Position numbers and translations under genes: made by a program. A stretch of DNA of 32,145 nt from Acanthaster planci (Eukaryota), in NCBI RefSeq assembly GCF_001949145.1, contig NW_019091419.1, positions 490,527 through 522,671 of the forward strand. Direction: 5' to 3'. Each line of letters starts with the position of its first letter. Within the stretch, counting starts at the first letter, position 1. Shown here piece after piece: positions 288 to 31,087 of the stretch. The notes beneath the pieces were generated by a model, which was not told where the DNA came from, ran no database searches, and saw nothing but the letters and a program-made list of their open reading frames with translations.

Positions 288-419
288 CTAGAAGTTTGGC
301 TCACTGATGTCTGTGAGGGTCTCCCCAAACACAGTCTTCTCCCACTTGGACAGCTGATGGACAAACGAGCGGTGGGGACGGATGTTGCTTTTACAAGAGG
401 CAAGGTGCTTGTAGGCTTC
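288..419 (-). CDS. STYXL1: STYXL1-like terminal exon: EAYKHLASCKSNIRPHRSFVHQLSKWEKTVFGETLTDISEPNF*
   Basis: Acceptor ctctctattcag|gaa with a long pyrimidine tract. Aligns without gaps to the DSP C-terminus (EAFDYIKQRRSMVSPNFGFMGQLLQYE). Stop TAG at 290-288. The 3'UTR runs off the window start. Confidence 0.8.
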   Translation of the reverse strand, partial: EAYKHLASCKSNIRPHRSFVHQLSKWEKTVFGETLTDISEPNF

Positions 420-904: not shown

Positions 905-1017
905 CTGCAGTGTCCACTTGTAGAACACCATGAGAAAGGCTAACACCACACAGACACTGCGGCTCAGACCGTGGTCACTGCATACGAGGGCAGGCTGCTC
1001 GGAACCTATCACATCAC
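905..1017 (-). CDS. STYXL1: STYXL1-like exon 6: (G)DVIGSEQPALVCSDHGLSRSVCVVLAFLMVFYKWTLQ, P-loop with Cys replaced by Ser
   Basis: Acceptor gccacatag|gt. Donor CAG|gtgatt. The HCxxGxxRS signature reads CSDHGLSRS, so the catalytic Cys is Ser. This is the defining MK-STYX pseudophosphatase feature. Confidence 0.8.
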
Positions 1018-1576: not shown

Positions 1577-1677
1577 CCAGATATTGGCATGCTGGGTTCA
1601 AGTGAGGGTCTAGGTCCCCATCCTCGTCATCTGTGACTGGAATGTGAAGCAGCTGATCACTGCTCAGGGCACAGTCT
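1577..1677 (-). CDS. STYXL1: STYXL1-like exon 5: DCALSSDQLLHIPVTDDEDGDLDPHLNPACQYL, DSP-domain middle
   Basis: ORF track 1341..1706(-). Acceptor ttttttag|a. Donor CTGG|gtaagg. LLHIPVTDDE corresponds to the YLHIPVEDN block of DSPs. Confidence 0.75.
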
Positions 1678-2605
1678 CTAAAAAACAAAGACAAAGGATT
1701 CACCACTAAACAACGTTACATTTTTAGTAATCTTTTCAGTAAAAAATCCCACAACTTCAGTTGTAAATAATCTTAGTAATGTTTGCTGGTGTTTCTTGAT
1801 AGACTGACCTGCTCAAAGTGTGCAACATTTTGGCAATGTCATGAAACGATACCTTTTCTGTATGGTACACATGTACTTGGCCAGTTGCCAACAAGCCACT
1901 TCATGGAAGGTCAATTCATGGAACTGATCTATAAACCTTCCAGTTTTATTACAGGAAAGGGTGACAGACAAGATGTAGATAGGCAACAAAAATTGAAAGA
2001 CTAGCAAAAGTCTGCTATAAATAAAAGTACCCAAAGTGACCACTGATCAGGGCCTGATTGGCCATGAGGCTCTGCTCACCATTAGCAAAAATATCACCAC
2101 GAACTACACCATAAAATTCTGCACTTAGGGTTAGCATATTTCTCAGATTAGCAGGAAAATTTGGGTTATATCATTTATATGCATGTGCAAATCCTGTAAC
2201 CAAGGATTCTATGCTTATTTGGTTGTCGAAGAATTTTAGTAATAGCACGCTTTTAGCATAAAATGCTGAAAATGAGCATGGAATTTGTGGTTAGCAGAGC
2301 CATGAAACTAGGCTACGTTAACTGGCTGGTAGAGACAGTTCCATCTACTGTTGCAGTTGCCTTTTAGCCTGGAACTTTGGACAGCCTACTTCTATTTCAT
2401 GAAATTGTCCTTGTTCTTTATAGTTTTAAGTCATCAGGACTTCCATACTGAGTTCTACACCAAAACAAACTCATGACCACAAGAAATTAAACAAAATACC
2501 TAACACGGTAAAAGAAACAAGAATAAAAGGCCTTGCATTCAGGACACAAAAAGTGACCCAATACTACGTGTTCCTTACAGTTCTGTAGGCTCTGCTGACA
2601 GGTAC

Positions 2606-2861
2606 ACTACTGCCTTGATTTTCAGGTCTTTCCTGACGGACGTCCGGCAGGCCTGCTGACAGTTCCCCAGGTACAGCCTGCCGGGCAGCACCTCCACAGG
2701 GTAGGGCTGGAGCTGGTCCAGCTCCCTGGGCATATAGATGATCTTCTGCGTTCGCAGGAACGGGTAGAGGGCCGAGAACTCCTCGTAGCCACCCCGGAGG
2801 ACCTTGACAGGATTGCGGCTGCCCATCTCTGACATGACTTGGGCGCATGCAATTGCAGGTT
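2606..2861 (-). CDS. STYXL1: STYXL1-like exon 4: rhodanese C-terminus (VKVLRGGYEEFSALYPFL) plus DSP-domain start (YPVEVLPGRLYLGNCQQA...DLKIKAVV)
   Basis: ORF track 2575..2835(-). Acceptor ttccattcag|aa, phase 1. GGYEEFS and LPGRLYLGN are hallmark MKP/DSP motifs. Donor AGT|gtacct is weaker and was chosen by phase (2) to match the next exon. Confidence 0.7.
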
Positions 2862-3285: not shown

Positions 3286-3385
3286 CTTGATCTTTCAGGC
3301 TTCGCGTTTTGCTGTCTAGAACCACAACATGCATTTTGCATTCCAGCTCACCATCATACGGAACAAGGAATTCTCCTGAGGCTGA
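3286..3385 (-). CDS. STYXL1: STYXL1-like exon 3: SASGEFLVPYDGELECKMHVVVLDSKTRSLKDQ, rhodanese core
   Basis: ORF track 3158..3409(-). Acceptor ttattacag|tca. Donor CAAG|gtactt. VVVLD matches the rhodanese VVVYD motif. Confidence 0.75.
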
Positions 3386-3698: not shown

Positions 3699-3760
3699 CC
3701 GAGGTGCTTTCTTGGATGTGATGATGTGACTCTCATTATACTCATTTGTTTGCCGGGCAT
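3699..3760 (-). CDS. STYXL1: STYXL1-like exon 2: (D)ARQTNEYNESHIITSKKAPR, rhodanese-domain N-terminal part
   Basis: Acceptor caaattgcag|at. Phase 1 joins g+at=Asp. Aligns to [22 protein letters not shown] of vertebrate STYXL1. Donor CGG|gtaatc, phase 0. Confidence 0.7.
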
Positions 3761-4180: not shown

Positions 4181-4286
4181 CTAGTAGCAAGAGGTAATTG
4201 GCATCACTGAGGCATGGATAGGATGTAGCCTGCTGAAGGATGTTGTATAGCTCTGTTGGCTCGCACATTACAATTCGACCAGCCAT
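4181..4286 (-). CDS. STYXL1: STYXL1-like pseudophosphatase, exon 1 (start codon): MAGRIVMCEPTELYNILQQATSYPCLSDANYLLLL + 1 nt
   Basis: ORF track 4014..4286(-). Strong Kozak caccATGg. N-terminus recalled to resemble vertebrate MK-STYX (MPGLLLCEPTELYNILNQ...). Donor CTAG|gtaagg leaves phase 1. Confidence 0.8.
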
Positions 4287-5603: not shown

Positions 5604-5681
5604 ATGTTGAGATCTTGTGTTCTTCTGAGGAGGGTGGGAACGCCAGCCCAAGCCAAACGATTGCTGTCGCTGTCTGCTCAG
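5604..5681 (+). CDS. MDH2: MDH2 exon 1: MLRSCVLLRRVGTPAQAKRLLSLSAQ, mitochondrial targeting presequence
   Basis: ATG at 5604. Arg-rich amphipathic presequence ending ...LSAQ, like human ...RSFSTSAQ. Donor CAG|gtaggt. TATA-like box ~70 nt upstream. Confidence 0.8.
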
Positions 5682-5930
5682 GTAGGTTGACCGGTCCTCG
5701 CCGCGCTCAGCGTGCCGGCGCTGTGGAACTGAACTGCAACTGGCATTATGACTGGACAGCGTGTTGTAGGTATCCATAGGCCTACATGTAACTTGTTACT
5801 ATGGAGTTGAGTCAGGCTGTCAGTTTTAAAACTGAAAGTGGAAGATTCAAAACTGTTTCAAATAATAATATACATTATGAAGGCCTATTTTACAATCAAA
5901 ATTCACAACAAATTTTGTAACTGCTTTGGC

Positions 5931-6175
5931 AGAAAGAGTTCCACTTGACCATGTTGACTCCCCATGCACAAACCTTGTGAAACTGGTCTGAAAAACTGTG
6001 TTTTCGAAGTAAGCGACTTGGTTTTATCCTTCCTAAAATGAACTTTTCTGGACATGTTTTTATTTTCTAAAGGCTAATACTAGGCCTACTACTTACTAGG
6101 TCACTGTAGGGAATAACTTCTGGTATCTGTTTATGGAGCTCTTCCCACTGTGATATATTGCAAAGCTAAGTTTCA
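5931..6175 (+). repeat. Interspersed repeat (family A) copy inside MDH2 intron 1
   Basis: About 75-80% identical to 26367-26605. The shared backbone is gagttcca...gcacaaacc...ggtctgaaaaa...gaacttttctggacatgttttt...gtcactgtagggaataa.... Confidence 0.7.
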
Positions 6176-6876
6176 ACCATGTATGACATGTTAACAGGAC
6201 AGTTACAAGGGTGCTAAAATTATTTTCATTGCTTCATGCGTTAAAGAGTTAAGTCAGTTTACAATGATAATTTTTACTTTTTCAGGGGGTCATGTTCTGT
6301 TGTCACTTTTCAGCATCACACACAATTGTTTTTAGAGCAATTACTTATGCATTCTGAAGGAAAAATGGAAGAAAGCTTGTACCAGCAGAAACAGCAAAAA
6401 TTTCCCTACACAGTCATGACAGTCCTTTTAAATTAGCTGCATAGCTGTATCTGTGGCAGGGTTATGGGCCCTAAAGATCATCTGAACTTTATAGAGGGTT
6501 AAACTTAACATGGATTTAAAACTTCCCAGTTATGTTGGCGATATTTTCAGGTCCTGGAATAAAGAATCCTTCAGAAGCAAATATTTGAAAACAGAAAGAG
6601 TGGCTACAAGTACATGATGTAATGCACACGCAAGTTTTTATTTTCGTTTTCGGTCCAGGAGCCTGTCTCCAGTCCTGTTATTCTTGAATGATTGTTGTAA
6701 CTTTGTTGTTTTGGGGGTTAGAATGATATGATATCCCAGTATGAACAGCCCAGAAATACATTTTGCAAGTATCATCAAATTGGACACATTCCACTAAACA
6801 TCCTTTGCAGCATTAGTGCAAAATGGAAGCGGAACTCTTGTGTTTGCATTTAATATGCATTTTTTCTTTCCTCTAG

Positions 6877-7129
6877 AATGAGCAAAAAATAGCAGTTCTG
6901 GGTGCAGCTGGTGGGATTGGCCAGCCATTGTCCCTCCTGCTGAAGATGAACCCAATGGTGAGCAACCTTGCACTTTACGATGTCGTCAACACACCTGGTG
7001 TGGCTGCCGACCTCAGCCATATTGAAACTCCAGCCAAGGTTACTGGTTACCAGGGAATGGAACAACTACAGCAGTGCCTGGAGGGAAGCCAGTTGGTGCT
7101 CATCCCTGCTGGCATGCCCAGGAAGCCTG
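6877..7129 (+). CDS. MDH2: MDH2 exon 2: [84 protein letters not shown](G)
   Basis: Acceptor ctctag|aat. NAD-binding motif GAAGGIGQ. Near-identical to the vertebrate mMDH N-terminus. Donor TG|gtaagc, phase 1. Confidence 0.9.
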
Positions 7130-7575
7130 GTAAGCTGTTTGGTAAAGTTACTGCGTATTACTAAAGTTTAGAATGCTGTCGAGAAAGTTTAGAATGGGCA
7201 CAAGAATCCACTTCAGAGATCAAGACGTAGTCTCTTTCCTTTGCAGCATGCTCAAAGTGTAGAAAGTTGTGAGCCCGTGAATCTGCTCTGACTAGAAGGG
7301 CCCCTTGCCAGCAAAGAGGAGACAAGCTAGTGGGACGTTTTTCAAGCAGGATCAAGCACATGCCTGTCATGCATTCAAAGACTATTTATTGCAAATGCAT
7401 GATCAGCATGACTTGTGCCAAGTGCCATTTCTAGTTTCTGTGCCAAGTGGATAAAGTCACGGTCATAGAATTAACATGAGAAAAACTATTACTCTCATTC
7501 TGACATTTTCTGTTGTTTGTATTATGATATTTTCACATGAAGATTTGCCTATTTCGTTGCCCTCTGCTTCTGTAG

Positions 7576-7685
7576 GAATGACCAGAGACGACCTGTTCAA
7601 CACAAATGCCTCAATCGTTGCTACTCTGACTGAAGCAGCAGCCAAGTATTGCCCAAAGGCTATCATGGGGATCATCACCAACCCG
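7576..7685 (+). CDS. MDH2: MDH2 exon 3: (G)[36 protein letters not shown]
   Basis: Acceptor tgtag|ga. Matches m[16 protein letters not shown]...ANPV. Donor CCG|gtaagg. Confidence 0.9.
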
Positions 7686-8163
7686 GTAAGGCAAACAATT
7701 AACAACAATTTTTTGAAATAAGTTGAGTACCATTTGAGGGAAGCATACAATGTTTATAAAGCGGGAAAAAATTGAGCAAAGTTTTGTGTCTGTAATGAAA
7801 CCAAGGATTTTTTTCAAACGCACAAACCTGACGAAAACCTGCAGTCACGAAAATGAGAAGAAATACGGTATAGAGGTGAGAGGAAAATCCCAGAAAAAAA
7901 ATTTCCTGGTAAAATGTAGTTTGGTACTGATTTAAAATCTTTACTCCAACCTGATGCCCCACTCACTCATTTTGTGAACCTTTAACTTCGACTGAAATTT
8001 AAGCTTTAGCACAGAAAATGTATGTTAGTACTCTAAACTGTCACCATCTATTACATCAACAAGGTTAGCTGGACAGCACCAAGCAGTCATTTTCCAGCAG
8101 TGGACCTTAAGCAAAGTGCGTTTCTTTCCATCTTGTGTATGCATAAATTGTGTGACAACTCAG

Positions 8164-8367
8164 GTCAATTCGACAGTTCCCATCTGCTCTGAGATCTACA
8201 AGAAAGCCGGAGTATATGATCCGGCCCGCATATTTGGCGTCACCACCCTGGACATCGTCCGATCCAACACATTCGTCTCTGAGCTGAAGGGCCTGGACGT
8301 CACTGCCACCTCGGTGCCGGTCATTGGAGGGCACTCGGGGATCACTATCATCCCACTGCTGTCTCAG
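8164..8367 (+). CDS. MDH2: MDH2 exon 4: [68 protein letters not shown]
   Basis: ORF track 8116..8433(+). Acceptor caactcag|gtc. Catalytic His in the IGGHSG motif. Donor CAG|gtaact. Confidence 0.9.
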
Positions 8368-8957
8368 GTAACTGGAAGCCATCCATTCTATGCAGGAGCA
8401 ACCCCTTTGCCAGTTACAGTGTTTTGGACATGAAGGACTCACAGAGCACTCTTACCTTATCTGTTTGAAGGTTCACGTGTGCGTCAGATGCTCAGATGAA
8501 ACCATTCCCACCATGTCTCCTCTTTGCTTGTGAAGGGGTGATTCAAGCTGGATGGGATAGTGCTTTTCAAGTTGGAAATTGTTTCCATCAGCATTGAAGT
8601 GAATTGCGGAAGTAATTTCAAATTTGTCAGGCATGGATCATTTTGCAGGCAGTTAAAATGCGTATGAGCTTTGCCCACAGATAGTCGTGCTTTTAGGTAC
8701 CCATCTAAACCTACCAAAATGTAACATATGCAGGATGAGTAAACTTTTCACAATTATTACATGGACAGAAAGAAATAATGTTCAAATTTGGTTCCAGAAC
8801 AGAGGACGTGAAGTTGGTTGGGAGCATGGTGTTCCCTTTGGTGGGTTTAGGGGAAATGTCCATTGTATCGGGGTAAAGTGGGTGTGAGAAAAACTCCTCA
8901 GGGGGTATTGTGATCTTGTGGATACGTTGACATCACTTTGTGCAATTTCATATCCAG

Positions 8958-13520: not shown

Positions 13521-14165
13521 CTGTACATGAAATCATGAAAATGAGAACAGGAAGGCAATTTCTGAACTGTTTTGGTTCAAATTAAAAGCATTTTTCAAAA
13601 ATGGTGCAAATTCCTCATGTTGGCATCTTGAAAATCAAACTTTAAGCATATGTCAAGAAGTACACAGAGGAACTACATATTTCATAATACATGTACTTAG
13701 ATCATGATATACACATATACTACGCAAATAGTGCTATAAAATCCTCCCCGAGCTGAAGTGCACCCCCAATCAGCGAAAAGAAAGACAGGTGGTTACAAGC
13801 GAGATCTTGCACGGGTTTTGCATGTATGCAGACACTCAGAGTGGATTAAAAGTCACAGAAGTTATAGCAACTGTTTGACATACAAGTGTCAGTTTCATGA
13901 GGCTTCCACATTCCGTGCATGTACTTAACATTCACGTTTTTCAAATTTTTGCTCCTCTCTGAAACAGTTGCGGCTGCTGATTTTTTAAAATCATTTTGGA
14001 AGTGCATTTGTATTGCAAATCTACAAGTTGCAGGTATGTCATTCGTTAGCCTGAAATGCTCTGAATTGTTTGAGACTTGGTGTATGTGAAGCTAAGTATC
14101 CCACACAGATTTTCAAATCATGATGTACCATTACAACCCTAGTAATAAATCACATCTATTCTTAC

Positions 14166-14431
14166 TTTCCGTCAATCCCCATCCTGTCACAAGGCAGTGG
14201 ATCTTGTTGGACATGTCCAACTCCTTGTCCAGGCAGGCCACGTTGACCTGCTCGCTGTCCAGCGACAGGGATCTGTCCAGGACCAAGACAGCCAGGTCGT
14301 TGCGCATTGTCTTGGTGTTAAAGCCCTTGTGCTTGATGATGTGTTTGATTTTGGCCTCCTGCTCGCCCTTGGACAGGTGGAGGTCAATAGTGTGCTTGCC
14401 GAGGTGGACCCTCCAAGTTGTTACATCATTC
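14166..14431 (-). CDS. Serine protease exon: NDVTTWRVHLGKHTIDLHLSKGEQEAKIKHIIKHKGFNTKTMRNDLAVLVLDRSLSLDSEQVNVACLDKELDMSNKIHCLVTGWGLTE
   Basis: ORF track 14131..14532(-). Acceptor cactttag|g, phase 2. Catalytic Asp in NDLAVLVL. CLVTGWG motif. Donor GAAA|gtaaga. Confidence 0.8.
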
Positions 14432-14620
14432 CTAAAGTGATACAAGGGAAAAAAGACATGGAATGGATTTGGTTTTTGACCTGTGTTTGTAAAATAATTT
14501 GCATTTTTTCCTCTCTTTTCATTCCTTTTCATCTACGTTTCATTCAGTCAGACTTCCAGTAGATTTGTTCAGTTGGTACTCAACTTCCTTACGACCCTAA
14601 CTTTGTTTTCACCACTCAGT

Positions 14621-14665
14621 CTGGTCTTGTATCTGGTCTTGTGTCTGGTCTTGTGTCTGGTCTCG
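14621..14665. repeat. Tandem repeat, ~3.7 copies of the 12-mer ctggtcttgtgt
   Basis: Read directly: ctggtcttgtat ctggtcttgtgt ctggtcttgtgt ctggtctcg. Confidence 0.8.
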
Positions 14666-15101
14666 ACTACAACACTGCACAATGCTTTCCACCATTTTAA
14701 GGGGGCCGCAGGTCATGCCCAGAGAAACAACATTGGATTTTTCTACTGCTTGAATACTGCATTCTTATGTAGAGCCTGTAAGTAAACGGCTGTGGTTAGT
14801 ATGTCTAATTCCTGTGATTGAATCTGGTCATGTGATCAATATACATGCACAACAGAAAGCTCCAAGTACATTGTTAAGGCCAAATGACAGAAACATTATG
14901 CCTTCTACAGTAGAAAATAGCCACCGTGGGTATTACAGAACAATAGCTAGGACAATGCTGCTGCCGTTATTGGAACCTCTAGACTATAGAGCAATACATG
15001 AAAGGATTGGCCCATTGGCTGGCATACTGATCACTGGGTAACACTGATCATACAAACTATTAAGTAACAGAAGAGTGGGCTTGCATTAAATTATTGATCA
15101 C

Positions 15102-15339
15102 ACCAAGAAAGCAAAGTTAGAGCGGACTTGCATTGATTTCATGAAGCAGTGGGCAGCCGAAACGACAATGTTCTCCCTCACCAGCGTCCCGCCACAGATA
15201 GCCACCTGCCTTCCGCTCTTGAACCTGTGGATGAGCTGGGCTTGCCAGGGCCAGGAACCAGCCACTGCCTCGATGCCACCCACAATGCGCTTTTCGAATA
15301 TCTGGAATGATGGCAATCTCCTTGTTCCACATCCTGTGT
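15102..15339 (-). CDS. Serine protease exon: linker plus activation site DTGCGTRRLPSFQIFEKR|IVGGIEAVAGSWPWQAQL...ICGGTLVRENIVVSAAHCFMKSMQVRSNFAFL
   Basis: ORF track 15098..15316(-). Zymogen activation motif KR-IVGG. Catalytic His in SAAHCF. Donor TTGGT|gtgatc, phase 2. The 5' acceptor is ambiguous between cactgtag|ac (15339) and acacag|ga (15333); both keep phase 1. Confidence 0.7.
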
Positions 15340-15907
15340 CTACAGTGCAGGCCAGACGGGGAAAGGTTGAAATGGCAGCAGAAGATAAAGAAGTGTAATA
15401 AACATAGAATCATGTATCGGTCCCCACACCTAAAAGTGAGAACTTTGGTTTCCAAGATTTTTGGTACGTTTGGGAAAGAAATAGGGGTAGTTTCCGTATT
15501 TACGTTTTCTAACTGGACTGAATCTAAATATGAAGGGGTAGAGTTCAATGAAAATCGACTGTAAAAGCTTTGAATACTGCGCTTTCAATACCTTCAGTCC
15601 AGTAACTCTGTCAGCATTGTATCCTCATTGCTATCCCAAAACTTATGAAAAAAATTGCAAGCTACTTGGGTGAAGCTGGATCCCTCCACCGCCTGCTTAC
15701 TGGTGCAAATTTTAAGGGCAAAACCCAGAATTCCATCAATTTGATTGCAGGTTATGAACAAGAGTTGTCTATCACCAACACATAACAGGTACGTGTAATT
15801 GATTGATTGAGAGGTTTTAAAAATGTTAAATTTGTCCATGCCACCTCCAACCGAAGAATCAAGTGCCAACCAGTCTCACATTTGCTAGGTGAACATGCAA
15901 ATCTCAC

Positions 15908-16093
15908 CCTTTTCTTGGATACACTCTTTCAACTGACAGCCCTCGACCTGAACATCTTTCCCAGTGCATGCAGTGCTCAGCTCGTGGCACTCTCGGTAGC
16001 GCTGTCGCTCGCCTGGTCCACAGTCTGTGTTGCAGGCCGACCACTCACTCCATAAACTCCAGCCGTAGATGGGGCTCCAGATGGACTCCACAT
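15908..16093 (-). CDS. Serine protease exon: thrombospondin type-1 repeat (N)VESIWSPIYGWSLWSEWSACNTDCGPGERQRYRECHELSTACTGKDVQVEGCQLKECIQEK
   Basis: ORF track 15885..16091(-). TSP1 signature WS.WS.W..C...CG.G...R.R.C. Acceptor tgtcacag|at. Donor AAGG|gtgaga. Phase 1-1 exon. Confidence 0.8.
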
Positions 16094-16595
16094 CTGTGAC
16101 AGGAATGTAGTCATGTTATGGCTGAGCAGAGTTTGCAGAGAGATATGTGAAGGTGCCTTGAGGTGAAAGAAACTGTTTGCAAGAAATCCTAGAGACACTG
16201 TTATACATCAGAGGGAAATCCAGCTTTGAGAATATGATTTTTATAATTGTGGGGAATTTGTAACTAAAAGCATAGGAATTTCTCAGGGGGAAAAGTGTCT
16301 CTCAAAAGTTTAATTTTTTCACTTGTGTAACTTTACCTTGAGCACAATGTTTTAATTTAGAGCAGAAAGAGTGTTAGTTCCCAACTTGAGTACAAATACA
16401 TTGAAGGAAAGCCCAAGAATCATTTTAAGTCCATATGAATTACACTTGTACATATGCTTAAGTTTTAGGATTGATGTTTACCGTTTACTTTTCTTATTGT
16501 TTGGTTTTTAAATGTGTATACAAACGAGATGTGTTAGTAGTACAAGTGCAATTCAACCTTCGGGTTGCCAAACTGTACTATTTTTTTTAGTGAAT

Positions 16596-16630
16596 AAACC
16601 AATAATAATAATAGTAATAATAATAATTAA
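16596..16630. repeat. Microsatellite (AAT/TAA)n
   Basis: aataataataatagtaataataataat in the intron between the TSP1 and LDLa exons. Confidence 0.8.
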
Positions 16631-16837
16631 AGTTTGTTCCTTGATTATGATTATCTGAAATTATATTCCTGCATGAAAAATCCCAGAGTGCGGAATAGCA
16701 AAGTGGTATTTCAAGCTTTATTCCGCAAGAGAGACAACAATCCAAGCACCTAGCATAACAGATACTTTTCTGGGGCACAAATGGTTCCTGATAGCATTTA
16801 TTGTCAGATCACTACAGAAATAAGCCAGACTTCTAAC

Positions 16838-16957
16838 CACAGTCTGTTTCGTCTGACCCGTCCCCACAATCATTATCATCGTCGCATCGCCAACCCTGGG
16901 GCACACAGAAGTCCTGGTGCTGGCAGGGAAATGCTCCTTTCCAACAGCGGTCCTCAA
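16838..16957 (-). CDS. Serine protease exon: LDL-receptor class A repeat (I)EDRCWKGAFPCQHQDFCVPQGWRCDDDNDCGDGSDETDC
   Basis: Seen only in the minus-strand frame that the ORF track splits. Classic LDLa: six Cys with W.CDG..DC.DGSDE. Acceptor ttggttgacacag|tt. Donor TGTG|gttaga. Phase 1-1. Confidence 0.7.
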
Positions 16958-17652
16958 CTGTGTCAACCAAGAAATATGACCACATGCAAATGTTAAATGT
17001 TGGAGGAAGGTTAGCCTAATGGGGTAGACAAGCAAAGGTCATTTTCAAATCTTTTGGTTTCTTTTTCTTGTGCTCAAGGGGAAGATTCAGGAGGGGGACA
17101 GTGGGTACCACTGTCTCCCAAGAAAGGAGCCTAATGTCTTTTAAAAATAATGACAGAAAGATGATTTGTTTATTTAATTTCCCCTCCTAAAAGCATATAA
17201 GAAGCCCCCAAATGCGGCCTCATTCCTCAGAATTTATAGATTCTTCTTGAGTGCCTTAATATGCACAAATGTTATGCCTGGTCATAAGCTCTCGTTTTTT
17301 CTCCACAACATGCATATTCCTTCTGTTTTTGCACTGATAGCTTGTTACACTTTGCCAGCCACTGGTTCTAACTGCCACACACTAAAAGAAAAATCTATGG
17401 GCCAGCTAAGGCTATATGTGCATACACTCCATCTGAACGCCTACTGACTGTAATATGTTAAATCTCCCAAGAAAATGAAGTTTACCCTAGTTGAAGGACC
17501 TGTTCCCTGTTCACAACTTGAATTTAAAGAGGCATATCTGGATGACACTTTGGCTTTTGAGAAATAAATTTAGCAACCCAAATTCAAAGCTGCATTAGTC
17601 AGTGCCTAGGTCAGGTGGGTACACTGATCATATAGCGTCATTTTTTTCTGAC

Positions 17653-17763
17653 TTGTTCCGCAGATGTCGGCTGTTTCATCTGACCAGTCATAGCAGTCGG
17701 CCATGCTGTCGCACACCCAGGACCATTTGATGCAGTCCTCGCCAGATAAGCAATGAAAACAAG
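17653..17763 (-). CDS. Serine protease exon: LDLa-like repeat (S)CFHCLSGEDCIKWSWVCDSMADCYDWSDETADICGT
   Basis: ORF track 17606..17878(-). Acceptor tttcatcttggttcgtag|ct. Donor ACAA|gtcaga chosen by phase (1-1). Cys1-Cys2 spacing is atypical (CFHC). Confidence 0.6.
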
Positions 17764-18334
17764 CTACGAACCAAGATGAAAAACATAAATAAAAATTGGA
17801 TAGTTTAGGACTTGGGACTGTACAAGAGGTGCACTTTGGTGGGAGGGGTTTGCTATTGCAAGATGGGGGCACAACCAAAAATGACCTTTGCAGCTTGAAA
17901 TGCTTATTACCTTGCAGAAAACTTTTAAGATAAACTTTCTTAAAACAAGTTTATGTCCTTGATTTAAAGGTCCATAGAATAAATTGTCAATGATTAATTT
18001 TGTTTAGATATCTAGTCTTTGGATGGGATGAAAGTATTTGAATACCTATTTATATTTCAGTCTAAAGAGTATTCTTACTTCAAAGCCCACAGTATTTTCT
18101 GATAACTGGTGTGCTTTAATGTGAATATCATTTCTGCACTCACAAAAAGAACACAAACTTTTTTGACTGGGATTGAATACTTATACATTCCTCAATATGA
18201 ACATGTACACTGTGATTTCATTGCTAAAAACAGGGGAAATCAAACAATTGTGAAATGACAACAGAAAAGTTAAAAGGAAAAGTGAACTGCGAATCGTGTG
18301 CCCTCGGCACCACTTCGAAATTTGTCCTACTTAC

Positions 18335-18469
18335 ACCCCAGTCTGTTGCAATTGGCTTGACGCTCGTCTGCCCCATCCACACAGTCCTCGATGCCATCAC
18401 ATATCTCTGCTCTTTCTATGCACTTTGTGCTGTCGTCACAGATCAATGTGAAGCACTCGTCTGTTTGAG
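18335..18469 (-). CDS. Serine protease exon: LDLa repeat (P)QTDECFTLICDDSTKCIERAEICDGIEDCVDGADERQANCNRLG
   Basis: Acceptor ctttatttttaag|ct. The alternative acacag|ac at 18460 is also phase-compatible. Donor GGGT|gtaagt. Six Cys with CDG.EDC.DGADE. Confidence 0.65.
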
Positions 18470-18700
18470 CTTAAAAATAAAGATTTGGACGTTACTCTTG
18501 TAATAGAGTTTGAAAAGCTAACTCAAGACCCCCAGTAGGGAGCTTGGATTGTTGAAAAGACAACAACTAAAAAGCACGCCAACGTGAACACAAAGATGGA
18601 CCAGTGGTTTCATTATCCCAAACTTGTGACACAAAGTACTCAACGCTAGAAAAACGACCAAAATGTTGAGCAAATTAAAAGGGACAAGGGGGAGACTTAC

Positions 18701-18802
18701 GGCAGTTCTCTTTCTTTTCATCCGATCCGTCCAGGCAGTCAGGTTGACCGTCACAGAGCCACAATTCGGACACCTTGGTTTCTCCGTCTTCGCAGGTGAA
18801 TC
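18701..18802 (-). CDS. Serine protease exon: LDLa repeat (G)[33 protein letters not shown]
   Basis: Acceptor ctttgtag|ga. Donor TGCC|gtaagt. W.CDG..DC.DGSDE signature. Phase 1-1. Confidence 0.8.
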
Positions 18803-19164
18803 CTACAAAGTTTGGCGTCATGAAGCAAATGCTAAACTGTACTCAGAGAGTTCAGTAGTCACTTGATATTTCTTAGCGCTGCCTGACTTTTTAAACTACT
18901 TACGAGGATTTCAGCTTAGATTTTTATTCGATGTTTAATGCTGTTTAGAGTTATGATGCGTTCAGTCGGTTGGCTTTTGCGGGCCTGCACGTGCTGTGCG
19001 ATTTGGTACCGGTGTGTCGGCGTTGTGCCGGTTCGTGGCCCATGAGGTGCGCCAACGTTGTGCCGGCTTTTTTGTCGGTGTTATACCACGCAGGTGTGTG
19101 GACAAAATTACCCGAACAGCCGAAGTTCTCCTTATCCACTAACGTTTCACTGGACAATCCTTAC

Positions 19165-19240
19165 GGACCCCTCGAATGGCGGTAAGCAATGTGTTAGTTT
19201 TTGTGCGCTGTCACAATGCTTACCGCCATTAACGGGGACC
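19165..19240. other. Intronic stem-loop: 14-bp perfect stem, one mismatch, 4 bp, then a 3-nt internal loop and a CCCC/GGGG extension; 18-nt loop
   Basis: Left arm cccctcgAATGGCGGTAAGCAaTGTG. Right arm CACAaTGCTTACCGCCATTaacGGGG. Lies in the protease intron between LDLa exons A and B. Confidence 0.5.
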
Positions 19241-19894
19241 ACTGCCAATAAACATTGACGGAGTTACCATGATCACTGAAACTGTCTATTGATGGTTATT
19301 TGAAATCTCCATGATGTGCAGCTTAACCTTCACCATAACTAATCCCCAAAGCCGTGGCTTTCAGTAATGTCCAGACACTGGGACTCTTAGATTATCCTTT
19401 CAAAGGACAGCTTGGAAATCATTTCGTTTCCTGATGTGCATCATCATGCTAGGATAAAAATGAATTTCGGACTGAGAGACTTGTCAGGAAGTATTTTGGG
19501 TGGTCGTCTTTCCATTATCTCTTGACAAAACGCAATGACTTTCAAACCTACATTACTTTGGTTGGTTTTGTGAACTCTATCTAGTATTTTAAATAAATGT
19601 TTTCATTTACTTCAACTTTCTTTCATCAATGAAGGGGTAAATGAAAATATATCTTTGAAATTGGAATAAAGATTTCAAGTGTCACAGAAAGGTGCAATAG
19701 CCCGAGCTTAAGCTTTACGATGGAAGCCGGACTGTGGGCTGAATTTAACGCCAGAAAGATTTGCGAGGGGAGGTGAGATCGAGGCGAGGGGTGGTGGTAA
19801 TAAAATCCCAGTTGGTGAAAGAATTGTAGCAGTCATTATCAAGTACAATGATCGTACTCATCTTTAGATTGTGTGGACTGTTTGATTTGGCTAC

Positions 19895-20029
19895 CTGTGT
19901 ATTGGCAATCGTCACCCTCATCGCTCCTGTCGTTGCAGTCGTAATACCAGTCGCATTCCAAGTCGGCGTCGATGCACATACCGTCGTCACAAGCGAACTC
20001 ACCTGCCCCGCAACGCTTGTTACCTTTGT
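19895..20029 (-). CDS. Serine protease exon: LDLa repeat (D)KGNKRCGAGEFACDDGMCIDADLECDWYYDCNDRSDEGDDCQYT
   Basis: ORF track 19839..20090(-). Acceptor tttttcgcag|ac. Donor ACAG|gtagcc. Phase 1-1. Confidence 0.8.
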
Positions 20030-20701
20030 CTGCGAAAAATGAGGAAAACGGGTCTTCCTGCTGAAATTCTGAGTGTTGACATGCAGACATTTTTTATGTA
20101 TTACATTCCAGTGTTTGAAGTATACGTTGGCTGGTATAAGCAAGTGGATAAGTAGCTTAGATCGTAATTAACAGGTTGGGAGCGGTGACAAAATTAGCAA
20201 TGGCCATTGTCAAAAAAATAATTTGAACAATCCAGGACAAAGGTACATTTATATCCGAAGTAATACTGATAAAAAGTGGGATGTAAGAATATCTTGGCAC
20301 GAACGGTGTGGGATGACCTTTAAACGACATGCAAGCAAGTTTGTCTCGAGCCAAGGGGGCTCATCAGACCGGCGTTTATCTCCAGCTTCACTGGCATAGA
20401 ACTACTAACTTAAAAGTCCGAATGAGATGGCAGTCCATCACACGTTGTCCCTAAGCTACTTCCAGTGCCTAGGAGTGAAGTGACTTCCGCCCCCAGGTCA
20501 CAACACGTAGCCAGCAGCTGAATTGGAACCCCCTACCCTCTGATAATGAGTCACAAACAACTACATCCCTCTGGGATATGCACCCTTGGCGGTGACTCTC
20601 TCCCTCCAAAGTAGCCTTCACATTGTTGGCCAGGCAGGCCCACACCCTCTCTGCTGCACATAGTTCATCATCGCTTTGAACAAACATTTCACTGTACCTA
20701 C

Positions 20702-20819: not shown

Positions 20820-21978
20820 CACTTTGTTAGGACAGAGGCAAAGGTTGAGGGGTAGGTTGCTTTGTGAAATGCACATGAAACCATGGCTGACCCATTCTTT
20901 TCAAATCATTCTTGCTGAGTTGCAGCGCATGAATTGTTACACTCGATGAGGAATTCGGGATATGTGCCGGCTCCCATTCATTGATCGATCTGCTCCTCGA
21001 GCTCAGAAGTTCTATGGAAGACGGGTGTAAAATTCCACCTCACCACTCATTCTTAAATCTTTGAGACAGTGTATTTCCCTCTTTTTCTAAAGAATACCTT
21101 TCCTCGTTTAATACAAATGGCCTAGGGACCTCCTTTGATGCTATTAAGTTGCGTGATCATTAGGCGCACAATTTTTTAATCTTGGTAATGTTACAAGTAG
21201 GTTTATCGTGAATGTTTTAATTGATCAAGTAATCGACGTGCGCTATTTCGGTTCGGCAAACAAAAATCATCTGCCCAAACGTCTTGCGATGCAAAAGAAT
21301 GTTCCTGCATCTCCTACGACATTTGTGGAGGATGTATATTTTCTAATTGAATTTCTCTTCCCAGTAGCTCATTGTGTTTGACACACAGTAATTATGTAGG
21401 CCCATGGTGTGGAATGGCAAAACGTGTATTAATGTATCATTATTACCTTGGCTGATTTAAAACGTAAATGGCAGGGAACAACACTGCTCTTTGCACGGTG
21501 CCCGGGCAAATCGTGTCTTAGTATATTTATACTATAATTACATCATTGTGTTGTTATTTGGTATCAAATTGACAAACAGTTCGAGTAGAAACATATCAGA
21601 TATGCCTTAGTTGTTTTCTGTGGAGTGTATGGATTGTATATATACACGTGCCTTTTGCTCTGCATTACTCCAAAAAGTGTGCGCTAACACTGTCGGACCC
21701 TACTCGATTGCATTTCCCTTTCAGGTCACAGTTGGGACTTGGCAGCTCAAAGTTCACTTCTACCAACAAACTGTGAACGTCCTGGCACTGCTATCATGTT
21801 ATCATCTGTTATGAAATATGCAATCAAGACACCACTAGCTATCATCACATGCACAATATACGTCTGCCCATTTAAAACCTAATCGTAAACCCAGTCGCAA
21901 ATCACATAAACTGAACACCCCTTTTGGACTCTGTGACTATATTCAAAAGATCTGATAAACCAAACTTCATTTTGGAAG

Positions 21979-22489
21979 ATGAAACGCCCTGTCGTGAAGG
22001 CTTTGTTTGGAAGTCTTGCTTTGGTACACGTATTATTTTTCCAGTTTGGGATTGCTAACCAGTACGACCCACATGTCTACCCCTCCATTGGACCGTTCAT
22101 CGAGGGCTGGTACGCCCGTTTGACAGACACGTCCACCCCACAATCGTTCGGCGTCCTCTTCGGTCGGGTGTTGCCCAAACCCACTGCCGAGCGGAAAAAG
22201 TCAATCCCGCTGACGTACGTTGCTATTGTTTGCAGCGCCGGAGACCAAGCGCCATTCGTGGTTGCGGAGGCCTTCCCCGATCCAGACCACATCTCTGTGA
22301 CAGTGGACGGTGGGATGCCCGTGACGGAGAACCCAGACAATCGTAGTCCGGCAAATTTCAGATGGGCCGCTGACCCATACGGGTCATTCAACGTGACGGC
22401 CGAATCGACAGTTTTTAACTTCACAATCGGGGACAAAAGCTTGGCTGGGAGCTTTGGGGCTCCAGTGCCATGGGGACCAGTTGGGCAAG
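21979..22489 (+). CDS. Tocopherol cyclase (VTE1/SXD1)-like exon 1: MKRPVVKALFGSLALVHVLFFQFGIANQYDPHVYPSIGPFIEGWYARLTD...GAPVPWGPVGQ + 1 nt
   Basis: ORF track 21979..22500(+). ATG with Kozak gaagATGa. FIEGWYARLT matches the FEGWYF(R/K) motif of tocopherol cyclases. Hydrophobic N-terminal segment. Donor CAAG|gtatac, phase 1. Confidence 0.7.
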
Positions 22490-22815
22490 GTATACGTTGA
22501 TCAAGATGCAGTAATTCTTGACGTGGCATGATGATTTTCTCATGGCATTTACTTGCCAAAGCTAATGTTTTTCTTTCAGTGTTAGGGGCGAGGGGTTATA
22601 GGCTGCAATCGAGTTCTACACAGCAATCAAGACTCAAATCTCTGTTGAGAAAGACCTCGGATGCGTTGGCAGTTGTGTTAATGTGGCACAGAGTTGTAAG
22701 CTGTCGTGCCATTGAAAGGGACATCACGCATGTTATGGAAGGGGTACTAAAAAATTTGATTGTTTAGCAAGCGTTAACATAAGAAGCGCCATTCTCTCTC
22801 TTTTTCCCATTTTAG

Positions 22816-23450
22816 GGCCAGAGGGGTGGTTGAGCAATCTTCCATTTATTCCACTCCACTGGTTCGTTTATAGCCTCTCAACATTCGGGGACTACACCTG
22901 GGAGAGTCGAGGAGACGGCCTGACAATCCATGGCAACGCCAGAATGCATCAAGAGAAGAACTGGGGAGATGGTTTTCCTCCATCTTGGATTTGGATGCAA
23001 GGGGTCGATTCCTCCGGCTCGACAGTCTTCGCGGGAACTTTCGGCGTCCTCAAGTTCTTGGGTTATTTGTCGATAACCGCTCACCTATTCGGTTACCGCG
23101 ACTACGGGGCCGACGTAGAGCTGGACTTTCGCCCTGACAATTCAATCAGCAGAATGACTGCCGATGGATGTAACGGTGTGGCGAGAATCGAAGTGCTTTC
23201 ATTTTGGTACAAGGTGATAGTAGAAGCCAGAGCCCCTCCTGCGACCCTGCAGAAGTGTCTGAGGGGGCCCACAGAATACGGATTTCAAAAGGTCTTGGTG
23301 GAAAGTTTCATGGCAACAGTGGACATTGCTGTTTACAAAAGAGGATACTTCAGCTACCACCTGATGGATATGAAATCGTTTGAGGGAGCGGCCATAGAAT
23401 TCGGCGGTGAAGAACTTTGCGAGCATAATCCATGCACAGCAGAACTGTAA
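22816..23450 (+). CDS. Tocopherol cyclase-like exon 2: (G)PEGWLSNLPFIPLHWFVYS...HGNARMHQEKNWGDGFPPSWIWMQGVD...FWYKVIVEARAPPATLQ...GAAIEFGGEELCEHNPCTAEL*
   Basis: ORF track 22830..23450(+). Acceptor ttttcccattttag|gg. EKNWG.GFP..W.W.Q matches the VTE1 core SEKNWGGGFPRKWFWVQCN. ELEARTNEAGT aligns with IVEARAPPATLQ and AAVEIGGGPW with AAIEFGGEEL. Stop TAA at 23448-23450. The two exons total 1146 nt, 381 aa. Confidence 0.75.
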
Positions 23451-27020: not shown

Positions 27021-28220
27021 ACATGTATATTTGCGTCTTGCAGAGCAGCAGAAGGGACGAAAGGGACATACATGTATGCTTTGCTTGATTACCCTTACTT
27101 CATGGAAGCTTCAAACTAGTGCTGTTTTTGATTACACACACTGTAGCAATTTATGACCCTTTTACCCTCAGGTAGATGGTACAAATGAGAGTGTATTGTT
27201 CAGTTGTGATCAGGAAGAGAACGTTGTACTGATATAATTCCACAAAGTTCTGTCCTCAACATTGTACAGTGATTTTGTTCAATAAGTCACATAGTCACGA
27301 GGGGAAAACGGTTGAGTGAGTCATAAAATGGAGGCCGTGATAGAGGAAGTACATACTCAGTGCACACAGTGAGTAAAGGTGCTTCATCGAACTGTCAGTG
27401 GAATTTGTATCCATTTGTGAGACGAAAGTGAAAGAACACAGAGTTTGTTTTGTTATGAGCCCCTAGCTGGACCAAGAGAGGGTGCAATTTTCCTAGCAAT
27501 GACCACCCCTTCGGTAGGAGCTGCACTTCGCTGGTTCACAAATGACTGTGAAATGCAGACATTATGGGGGCATTGCTAGTTTGCTACTCGTAAAATGAAC
27601 ACTCCTCACCAGCTGATGAAATTGATGCTTGTGCTTCTGCTCCATGTGGACTCTGGACATCAGAACCATTCAAATTGCAGATACAGAGAGGGTTGAATTT
27701 TTCCTGTAAGATGATTTTTGTGTTTAATATGCTTTGAGTATGCATTGGGTTTGAGTCCGTGGCCCAATTTTTCTGGCACAGCTCATTTTAAGAGAAGAAT
27801 TTTTGTTAAATGCAGCAGAAATTTTTTAAATGCCACTGAAAATATTTGCCTGAACTGTCACTGGTATAATTCACCGGCAAGCAAAGAATTCCATGACCAA
27901 GAGTTTCAGTGCTGAGAACTTTGTTGCCAGTTTTTGTGGGTTTTCATCACCTCTGTTTAGGCAATAAGATTCAAAACAGGGGTCCGTTTTTCATTCTGTA
28001 CACAAGTTTGTAGGTGTCCACAGAATACATGTATATATCCCCCATGTTAAAAGTGAATGGTCTGTCACTACATTTTCTTTACAGACTCCATTCTTTGACA
28101 ATTAAGAATAGCAGCAGTGATGCTACACCAGTTGGGGCTGGAAAATTGGTATCCCTTGCTACCTTAGCTTACAATGAAATTGACATCTTGATTGCATCTG
28201 ATCACAGAAAAAGACCCACC

Positions 28221-28396
28221 ATGAGCGATAAGGGAAAGCGTGGAAGTAACCCCCTTAACTTTGGGGGTGGGGGTGGCTCTGAGGAGTCCATCTACAGAAT
28301 TCCTCCATACTACTTCATCCATGTCCTCAACCACAACACCAATGTCACCACGGTGGAGACTGGGCCCCGAACCTTTATCAGGCAGGACCACGAAAG
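28221..28396 (+). CDS. MVP: MVP first coding exon: [58 protein letters not shown] + 2 nt
   Basis: ORF track 28014..28400(+). Kozak cccaccATGa. [36 protein letters not shown] matches human MVP [36 protein letters not shown]. Donor AAAG|gtaagt. Confidence 0.85.
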
Positions 28397-29161
28397 GTAA
28401 GTCAGGGGTTGGATGTGGAAAGTGCTTCTTGTAATGTAAACTGAGCGAAATTTTATGTAACTTCTGAGCATGATGTGCTTGTCCATGCTGGTTACCTGTG
28501 GAAGAAAGATGTAGAAACAGAATATGATGCACTGCTGTCACTAATGGGACACACTGCATGCATTCATTGGTGTTTAATTCAGCGACCAGAGTGAGAAGGC
28601 CCTGTTACAGTTACTTCAGTGGTGTGACACTCCTGTGTAAATTCTACACATGTGCGTAATTTCCGTCTTTTACTGATAAGGTGTTGTGACATTCGAAATG
28701 CATGCATGGTGCCCGTGATGGATCTCGCAGAAAATCTTTGCCTGAGCAATTGGTGCATTTTGGGCAATGACAAGGACGTGTCTGTCTAGTGTCTAGTTGT
28801 GTATGCAGATCATGTCACATTTCTTTTTTATTCCCTACGTGGCTTAAGGTAAAAGACAGAGTGTGACTTGAAGTCCTGAATCCCCTAAGCATGTTTTTTG
28901 GGCATCCACTAAATATCAAAAAATTTTTACACTCTTTGGTACATCAATTGGCACATCAAGACTAATGCTAAAGAAATTTCTACCGGGCTATGTACTGTTG
29001 AATTCATTGAAACTTTACAAAACTGGGAGATTTATGGAAAAAGTAGTGTTTGGTTAAAAGAGAAACCCTGCATAACCTTGTTGGGTTCAACATGGTTAGG
29101 GTTAATACATGTATCTGTTCTTGAGCCTCAATATTGCTCGTTCTTTTGATATCTTCTCCAG

Positions 29162-30134: not shown

Positions 30135-30488
30135 CCTGTAACTGCCCTCAAAGTCGTCCCTGCCAACTCTGCTCTCCGTCTGCGCGCAGTCCTGGACTTT
30201 GACGACGAGGAGGCCAAGACCAAGCGGGTGGCCGGGGACGAGTGGCTCTTTGAGGGGCCCGGCACCTACATCCCCCGCAAGGAGGTGGTAGTGGATGAGA
30301 CAATCCGTGCCACAGTCATCAAGGCCAACCAGGCCATCAAGCTGCGGGCCCGCAAGGAGACAGAGGACCGACAGGGCTCCGCCCGGGTGACTGGGGAGGA
30401 GTGGCTGGTCAAGAAGATCGGCGCCTACCTGCCGGGGGCCTATGAGGAGGTTGTGGGTGTGGTCAATGCCTACGTTCTGACGGATAAG
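30135..30488 (+). CDS. MVP: MVP exon: [118 protein letters not shown]
   Basis: ORF track 30228..30506(+). Acceptor ttttgctttag|cct. Donor AAG|gtaaaa. Contains the vault-repeat signatures [18 protein letters not shown] and GEEWLV..GAYLP. Confidence 0.9.
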
Positions 30489-31087
30489 GTAAAAGCATGC
30501 TTGTAGATGGAACTCTTGTATCAGTTACTTGAATGATGGCTGAGATAACCTTAGCTCACTTCCTAGGCTGAATTTTTAGTGATAAGTTAGGCACAGCATC
30601 ACAGAGTGGTGAACTCAAAATATTCACGACCTTCCACACACCTTCTGCGAGAAAAAGTTATCTTCAGGCCATGAATAGAGGATAGCTAGCTAGAGGATAG
30701 GTAGCCTTAAATAAGTTTGCCTACAGCAAGATTAACACAGACTTAACACAAAATCTGTCGACCCTTTCCAAGCGTGCATTCGGTTGACAGTTTTCGCGCA
30801 TTGTGATTGGTCAACGCATTGCAAACTCTTGGAGGTGCACTATTGTGAATTGCCCTTATTGCATTTCACATGTTGCGGGAGACTGCTGAGTCTTTCAGAT
30901 TTCAGTAACAAGGGCGCAGTCGAGTTTATCGTGAAAGTTTGGTGGTGCGTTACTGTTTTGTTTCAAGATCCAACAGAAACTGCTCTTGTTGGATCTCGCG
31001 GCGTCCATCAGGCTCACGTTTAACTCCAGGGGTGAATTTGAAACTTATCGTTGAACTGGTACCTGTGCATGGAATTTGTATTTGCAG

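Follow-up and report, generated by a model that had tools for sequence, protein, structure and literature searches.

STYXL1 of the sea star Acanthaster planci, a pseudophosphatase with serine at the position of the catalytic cysteine

Genes in the window and exon structure of STYXL1

The analysed window comprises 32,145 nucleotides of the A. planci genome (positions 490,527 to 522,671 of contig NW_019091419.1) and is eukaryotic DNA with a G + C content of about 41%. Conceptual splicing of seven minus-strand exons with canonical AG/GT junctions yielded an open reading frame of 897 nt coding for 298 amino acids; the length of 289 amino acids given in an earlier reading of the same DNA without database searches (the sequence-only reading) is a minor error. 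The product matches XP_022093250.1/XP_022093251.1, STYXL1 [Acanthaster planci], exactly, and the gene was therefore already annotated, which that reading had not recorded. Pfam identified a Rhodanese domain (residues 29–120, E = 2.4e-7) and a DSPc domain (residues 152–283, E = 5e-23), matches that are far beyond chance. The features of the window are as follows.

288..419, minus strand: STYXL1 coding exon 7, C-terminal helices with PHRSFVHQL (351-377), stop codon TAG at 288-290
905..1017, minus strand: STYXL1 coding exon 6, degenerate P-loop LVCSDHGLSRS (956-988), in-frame translation DVIGSEQPALVCSDHGLSRSVCVVLAFLMVFYKWTLQ
1577..1677, minus strand: STYXL1 coding exon 5, D-loop LLHIPVTDD (1626-1652), codon of the general-acid Asp200 at 1629-1631
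2579..2861, minus strand: STYXL1 coding exon 4, rhodanese end GGYEEFS (2773-2793), linker FLRTQKIIYMPRELDQLQPYPVEV, DSP start LPGRLYLGN (2662-2688)
3286..3385, minus strand: STYXL1 coding exon 3, rhodanese core, Asp80 at the rhodanese/Cdc25 active-Cys position
3699..3760, minus strand: STYXL1 coding exon 2 (62 nt), rhodanese motif DARQTNEYNESHI and KIM-equivalent ITSKKAPR
4181..4286, minus strand: STYXL1 coding exon 1, start codon ATG at 4284-4286, beginning of the rhodanese/CH2 domain, donor GT
5604-8430, plus strand: MDH2 (mitochondrial malate dehydrogenase), head-to-head with STYXL1
5604-5681, plus strand: putative exon 1 of MDH2 (MLRSCVLLRR...)
6877-7161 and 8029-8430, plus strand: Ldh_1_N and Ldh_1_C domains of MDH2
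14134-20093, minus strand: mosaic serine protease gene with a trypsin domain (14134-15409), a thrombospondin type 1 repeat (15888-16115) and LDL-receptor class A modules at 17609-17950 (by reading) and 19842-20093 (Pfam match)
21937-23447, plus strand: two long open segments of 187 and 244 amino acids with a G + C content of 0.50 versus about 0.41; the 244-aa segment matches Pfam Tocopherol_cycl (PF14249, E = 1.4e-9), a family unexpected in an animal genome
28014-31324, plus strand: major vault protein gene with Vault repeats at 30135-30503 (E = 3e-35) and a likely N-terminal exon at about 28014-28397

The four sequence blocks which the sequence-only reading had regarded as conserved (GGYEEFS, LPGRLYLGN, LLHIPVTDD, and PHRSFVHQL) were all located in these exons. 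Each of the seven exons has the same length in the genomes of A. planci, Patiria, and Asterias, with exon 1 comprising 106 nt in all three. The 62-nt exon 2 also occurs in the sea urchin Diadema and in birds, and the exon encoding the P-loop is common to sea stars, urchin, and birds with a length of 113 nt in starfish versus 110 nt in birds. The last exon has 132 nt in sea stars and birds and 141 nt in Diadema. The region of starfish exon 4 (283 nt) contains an additional intron in Diadema (119 + 164 nt) and in birds (146 + 146 nt).

Exon 6 is bounded by an AG acceptor and a GT donor, and the sequence-only reading had called for its splice joins at 1017 and 905 to be confirmed with transcript data. 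A sea-star transcript contig of 1,148 nt (Logan SRR28369213), which stems from a fourth species and not from A. planci, shares 80.5% nucleotide identity with the spliced coding sequence and is collinear with it without gaps over all six junctions, including those between exons 5 and 6 and exons 6 and 7. The A. planci protein itself had no exact record in the contig collection, which hence provided no independent copy of the locus.

The best PDB match of the neighbouring gene product is human MDH2 (E = 2e-34). The start codons of STYXL1 and MDH2 are separated by about 1.3 kb, and the two genes probably share a promoter region. This divergent pair was found in the window, in Patiria and Asterias, in two galliform birds, in amphioxus, and in Lingula, but not in Nematostella, and the arrangement is thus conserved across Bilateria.

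Assignment to STYXL1 and the active-site loop

Searches of the PDB with phmmer retrieved bovine STYXL1 (E = 6e-77) and mouse STYXL1 (E = 2e-74) far ahead of the best active dual specificity phosphatase, DUSP5 (E = 8e-13). Like vertebrate STYXL1 (MK-STYX, DUSP24), the starfish protein consists of a rhodanese/CH2 domain followed by a DSP domain in about 300 amino acids, and the two domains are connected by the same STYXL1-specific linker FLRTQKIIYMPRELD. The family pattern of this linker, FLRTQKIxxMPxELDxxxPYPxEI, which is matched by FLRTQKIIYMPRELDQLQPYPVEV of the starfish protein, occurs in STYXL1-type representatives and not in MAP kinase phosphatases (MKPs) or in the active rhodanese-DSP proteins termed DUSPR. 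Human STYXL1 is defined by replacement of the His and Cys of the HCx5R motif (with Ser as nucleophile residue in vertebrates) and retention of the Arg (PMC8907265); the starfish loop, C230-S231-DHGLS-R237, is degenerate in the same manner, and Gly, Ser, and the general-acid Asp are kept in both. A kinase interaction motif (KIM) with consecutive Arg residues is absent, the corresponding region reading IITSKKAPRS in starfish and ITALRVKKKN in human STYXL1 (PMC8622459). The genomic context likewise agrees, as vertebrate STYXL1 also lies head-to-head with MDH2 and its exon sizes in birds are largely those of the sea stars. In a bootstrapped neighbor-joining (NJ) tree, the STYXL1-type proteins clustered apart from DUSPR and MKPs in 67% of the replicates, and in 88% when a sequence of the unicellular holozoan Pigoraptor chileana was included in the cluster. 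The starfish protein thus has every testable feature of the STYXL1 orthogroup, and the STYXL1-like identity proposed from the letters alone can be stated as orthology on the basis of PDB matches, linker, exon sizes, and the MDH2 neighbour. It differs from vertebrate STYXL1 in carrying Cys230 instead of Phe at the His position and in lacking an acidic insert in the rhodanese domain (298 versus 306–321 amino acids). For the window itself these results carry little weight, since the gene is correctly annotated and the pseudophosphatase is well known: the protein belongs to a pseudoenzyme family that was known before, and the finding is correct but ordinary.

Two other groups of proteins share parts of this design. 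The MKPs (DUSP1/4/5/6/7/9/10/16) have the same two-domain layout, and their catalytic domain superimposes on that of the starfish protein with a TM score of about 0.9 and an rmsd of 1.5–2 Å; however, they are active enzymes with an HCxAGxSRS loop, a KIM containing consecutive Arg residues, and a long flexible inter-domain linker, whereas in the starfish protein ITSKKAPR lacks an Arg-Arg pair, the loop is dead, and the linker is short and conserved. STYX resembles it in possessing a dead DSP domain with retained Arg and functions in mouse spermiogenesis (PMC10761714, PMC8622459), but is a single-domain protein in which Gly replaces Cys next to a retained His (HGx5R), and it was only a weak match (2r0b, E = 5.5e-5).

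According to the sequence-only reading, the stretch from 905 to 1017 encodes a pseudophosphatase P-loop with Ser in place of the catalytic Cys and with the conserved Arg and Ser retained. The in-frame translation bears this out: Ser231, encoded by AGT (977-979), occupies the nucleophile position, and Gly234, Ser236, and Arg237 (codon 959-961) are kept, as is Asp200 at the general-acid position of the D-loop (IPVTDD). Overlooked had been the loss of the preceding His, whose position in HCx5R is taken by Cys230 (codon 980-982). In HMMER alignments LVCSDHGLSRS is paired with LVFSTLGISRS (bovine STYXL1) and LVFSTRGISRS (mouse STYXL1), and Ser231 stands at the catalytic position of DUSP5; in the profile alignment Ser231 coincides with the VLVHCNLGVSRSS Cys of active relatives; the comparison with vertebrate STYXL1 and active proteins that had been suggested as a check thus finds it in register. 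The protein does not match the active loop pattern (V/I)HCxxGxSR(S/T) of MKPs and DUSPR. Since the nucleophile is replaced by Ser231 and the His by Cys230, the Cys-based PTP mechanism is impossible for this protein, and from the absent nucleophile it is predicted to lack phosphatase activity. The same Cys-to-Ser exchange is the inactivating mutation made for the crystal structures of DUSP1, DUSP7, and DUSP22 (PDB entry titles).

Because AGT (Ser) is a single substitution away from TGT (Cys), the degenerate loop could in principle reflect a sequencing or assembly error, a mis-spliced exon, a canonical P-loop encoded in another exon, or decay of the gene into a pseudogene. The probability of any such artefact is practically negligible. 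All four sea stars, A. planci, Patiria miniata, Asterias rubens, and the species of the transcript contig, have AGT as the Ser codon, which rules out a sequencing error; the seven-exon structure is the same in three genomes, and the transcript is collinear at every junction. Decay of the gene is contradicted by omega values of 0.03–0.07 (see below). A six-frame search of the entire 32-kb window for HCx5R, Cx5R[ST], and CxxGxxR yielded chance matches only and no phosphatase-type loop, and in tblastn searches of the window with the exon 6 peptide, two active DUSPR proteins, and one MKP the only P-loop match was exon 6, with the active DUSPR and MKP queries landing on 905-1021. No second P-loop-like exon thus occurs in any frame of the window, and both refuting possibilities named in the sequence-only reading, an alternative exon with a canonical loop and an error in the Ser codon, are thereby ruled out.

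Age of the inactive state, selection, and relatives

The best 120 database relatives of the starfish protein were collected, 119 of which could be aligned. They represent echinoderms, hemichordates, amphioxus, tunicates, vertebrates, molluscs, annelids, a brachiopod, nemerteans, an acoel, and cnidarians. The residues at the key positions in these orthologs are as follows.

Nucleophile position: Ser 102, Asp 14, Gly 3, Cys 0
His position: Phe 78, Ser 13, Tyr 9, Cys 6, Trp 6, Thr 5, Ala 2, His 0
Asp200: 119/119
Gly234: 116/119
Ser236: 117/119
Arg237: 117/119

The interchangeability of Ser, Asp, and Gly at the nucleophile position indicates that the side chain has no role as nucleophile. A separate profile alignment revealed the loop VVSSDSLSRS, with Ser at the nucleophile position, in the ctenophores Mnemiopsis and Bolinopsis. 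The lineages added when 1.8 billion cluster representatives were searched with the profile and clusters were looked up are ctenophores, rotifers, flukes, octopus, and a scyphozoan. An ecdysozoan STYXL1 was not among the named matches listed. These sequences show that the inactive state predates the vertebrates, as had been surmised for the Cys-to-Ser state, and is present in every sampled animal phylum, the catalytic Cys apparently having been lost before animals diversified. Asp80, the residue at the rhodanese/Cdc25 active-Cys position, also showed no variation in the ortholog alignment. The STYXL1 subfamily was reportedly catalogued by Chen, Dixon and Manning in their 2017 work on phosphatome evolution. 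A literature search for a report on sea-urchin STYX or a sea-urchin phosphatome returned nothing relevant.

The same residue counts bear on the idea that the sea-star protein is a cryptic phosphatase using Cys230 (VCSDHGLSR, C-x6-R) or Ser231 as nucleophile. Cys230 directly precedes Ser231 in asteroids and one sea cucumber, and both the Arg and the general-acid Asp needed in such a scheme are kept. However, the C-x6-R spacing departs from the obligatory C-x5-R, and Cys is found at this position in only 6 of the 119 orthologs, with F, S, Y, W, T, or A in the others; owing to this sporadic occurrence Cys230 is not a conserved functional residue, and its use as a shifted nucleophile is rejected on the grounds of spacing and distribution. 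A catalytic Ser231 is at odds with Ser being the standard inactivating replacement in DUSP crystal structures and with Asp or Gly taking its place in other phyla. Residual phosphatase activity by either residue is accordingly very improbable.

Selection was assessed by the Nei-Gojobori method on the exact coding sequences extracted from the loci of Patiria miniata and Asterias rubens. Between A. planci and Patiria an omega of 0.068 was obtained (dN 0.042, dS 0.62); the values for A. planci versus Asterias (0.031) and Patiria versus Asterias (0.052) derive from comparisons in which dS is saturated. The 11-residue P-loop peptide is the same in the three sea stars, although synonymous differences occur at 5 of its 11 codons. 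These data agree with the earlier proposal of a selected pseudoenzyme and show that starfish STYXL1 is under strong purifying selection, far stronger than in a pair of galliform birds analysed by the same method (omega 0.34 versus 0.03–0.07 in sea stars). The bird value is in agreement with a study restricted to 145 vertebrates, which found MK-STYX weakly constrained or "nearly neutral" (Qi et al., 2022). The tight constraint on the invertebrate orthologs thus contrasts with the picture obtained from vertebrates only.

Ranking behind the STYXL1-type proteins in the profile search were full-length rhodanese-DSP proteins with an intact VLVHCNLGVSRSS loop, which are the best-scoring non-STYXL1 proteins of full length. 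A search seeded with the amphioxus member identified this group as DUSPR, "rhodanese domain-containing dual specificity phosphatase", with members in cnidarians, Patiria, sea urchin, Lingula, a rotifer, amphioxus, and many ray-finned fishes. The catalytic His-Cys pair is kept in all 106 matches with an aligned P-loop (2 of 108 had none). DUSPR proteins such as those of Patiria (P0295) and Branchiostoma (P0173) resemble starfish STYXL1 in domain order, in an xLG-type P-loop (NLGVSRSS), and in a related linker (FLCTDK...), but they have a canonical VHCxxGxSRS instead of a dead loop, carry an N-terminal extension of about 80–450 amino acids, share about 29% identity with starfish STYXL1, and form a separate clade. 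A joint clade of STYXL1 and DUSPR received 6% bootstrap support in the NJ tree and 44% after one unnamed sequence had been added, so that DUSPR as sister lineage of STYXL1 is a weakly supported grouping. DUSPR, an active lineage by its intact loop, persists beside STYXL1 in sea stars, cnidarians, amphioxus, and fishes. No relevant literature on DUSPR was found in a search. The DUSPR lineage (P0173, P0275, P0295, P0298-P0367) is widely misnamed in annotations of fish and amphioxus: RefSeq often calls it 'STYXL1' there, which is a systematic naming error given the retained His-Cys and the separate clade.

The Pigoraptor chileana protein (EukProt, P0175) has the loop VFVFCNMGVSRSS (FCNMGVSRS), in which Cys and Arg are kept and Phe replaces His; the general-acid Asp is also present. 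It joined the STYXL1 clade in 88% of the NJ replicates and DUSPR in none. This single transcriptome sequence and simple NJ tree hint that the His may have been lost before the Cys on the way to STYXL1. A search seeded with the Pigoraptor protein retrieved no further relatives from unicellular holozoans. Another unusual STYXL1-like protein, P0128 of the flatworm Macrostomum lignano, has Cys as its nucleophile-position residue (YCDDGVSCS) and has lost both the Arg and the Asp of the D-loop.

Structural similarity to axonemal STYXL1 and proposed role

The AlphaFold2 model of the starfish protein (pLDDT 93.4, pTM 0.91) superimposes over the full length on STYXL1 of the 96-nm axonemal repeat of bovine sperm (9fqr, chain Xs; TM 0.94, 1.5 Å) and on STYXL1 of radial spoke 3 (RS3) of mouse respiratory cilia (9d2f, chain H; TM 0.89). 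These two chains, which share 44–46% identity with the starfish protein, are its closest solved structures, and because the superposition extends over the full length the relative placement of both domains is also conserved. One study locates STYXL1 on the proximal RS3 stalk, bound together with MORN5 to a helix of CFAP91 and in contact with CFAP61 (10.1101/2025.05.19.654877). Another reports STYXL1 in all mammalian motile cilia and lists no Chlamydomonas ortholog (Leung et al., 2025; PMC11779644). An ortholog was searched for in Tetrahymena and not found; RS3 can thus be built without STYXL1, a point that weighs against the role proposed below. Loss of Styxl1 renders mice infertile and leaves the microtubules of their flagella disorganised, and mouse STYXL1 binds the chaperonin CCT through a region other than the phosphatase domain (Chen et al., PMC10761714).

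The overall reading, with exon 6 (905-1017) encoding the P-loop of A. planci STYXL1 (MK-STYX) and the protein being a two-domain pseudophosphatase that acts non-catalytically in the RS3 stalk, has a probability of roughly 0.8. The annotation aside, the sequence-only reading had lacked this concrete non-catalytic role, which is known from the axoneme structures. Orthology and the fold shared with the mammalian axonemal chains make a structural role in the axoneme, transferred from mammals at the identity given above, the most likely one for the starfish protein. In motile cilia and the flagella of sperm it would form a rigid element of the RS3 stalk, docking beside MORN5 on the helical segment of CFAP91 and contacting CFAP61 as in bovine and mouse axonemes. 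An additional role as CCT co-factor in the folding of flagellar tubulin, as in mouse, is conceivable.

A purely structural function leaves the invariance of the general-acid Asp and the P-loop Arg unexplained. The near-invariance of Asp200, Gly234, Ser236, and Arg237 suggests that an anion-binding cradle is still used for binding or structural integrity rather than for turnover. In human MK-STYX, restoration of His and Cys (F245H/S246C) produces an active enzyme (PMC2873733), and the remaining pocket of the human protein is therefore intact. It is accordingly possible, though less likely, that the dead pocket reads phosphorylated or anionic partners in the manner of STYX and regulates G3BP and stress granules, PTPMT1, MAPK, or the phospho-regulation of RS3. 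Such a function would account for residues kept across Metazoa despite the lost nucleophile; the two exchanges alone reactivate the human protein, G3BP is bound by the wild type and not by the active mutant (PMC2873733), and RS3 carries PKA subunits and is called a phospho-regulatory hub in the structural study (10.1101/2025.05.19.654877). Against it, the cited literature reports no phospho-dependent ligand of STYXL1, the RS3 contacts described in the accessible portions of both axoneme studies are CFAP91, MORN5, and CFAP61 with no mention of the P-loop pocket (PMC11779644, 10.1101/2025.05.19.654877), and CCT is bound through the non-phosphatase region (Chen et al., PMC10761714). Reading of phosphorylated partners and the structural role in RS3 could also coexist.

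A further-reaching and rather unlikely extension is that STYXL1 arose, already as a pseudoenzyme, on the stem lineage of animals from a catalytically active rhodanese-DSP protein that was also ancestral to DUSPR, and that its Asp/Gly/Ser/Arg cradle, which has been invariant since the diversification of animals, is more than a relic and would act as a phospho- or anion-reader linking PKA-type signalling to spoke mechanics in RS3. Echinoderm sperm, a classical axoneme system, could be used to probe why a radial-spoke protein keeps a phosphate-binding cradle. Besides the axonemal role, functions of mammalian MK-STYX in G3BP binding and stress granules, in connection with PTPMT1 and apoptosis, and in neurite outgrowth have been reported (PMC10761714, PMC2873733), and these may apply to the starfish protein additionally or instead.
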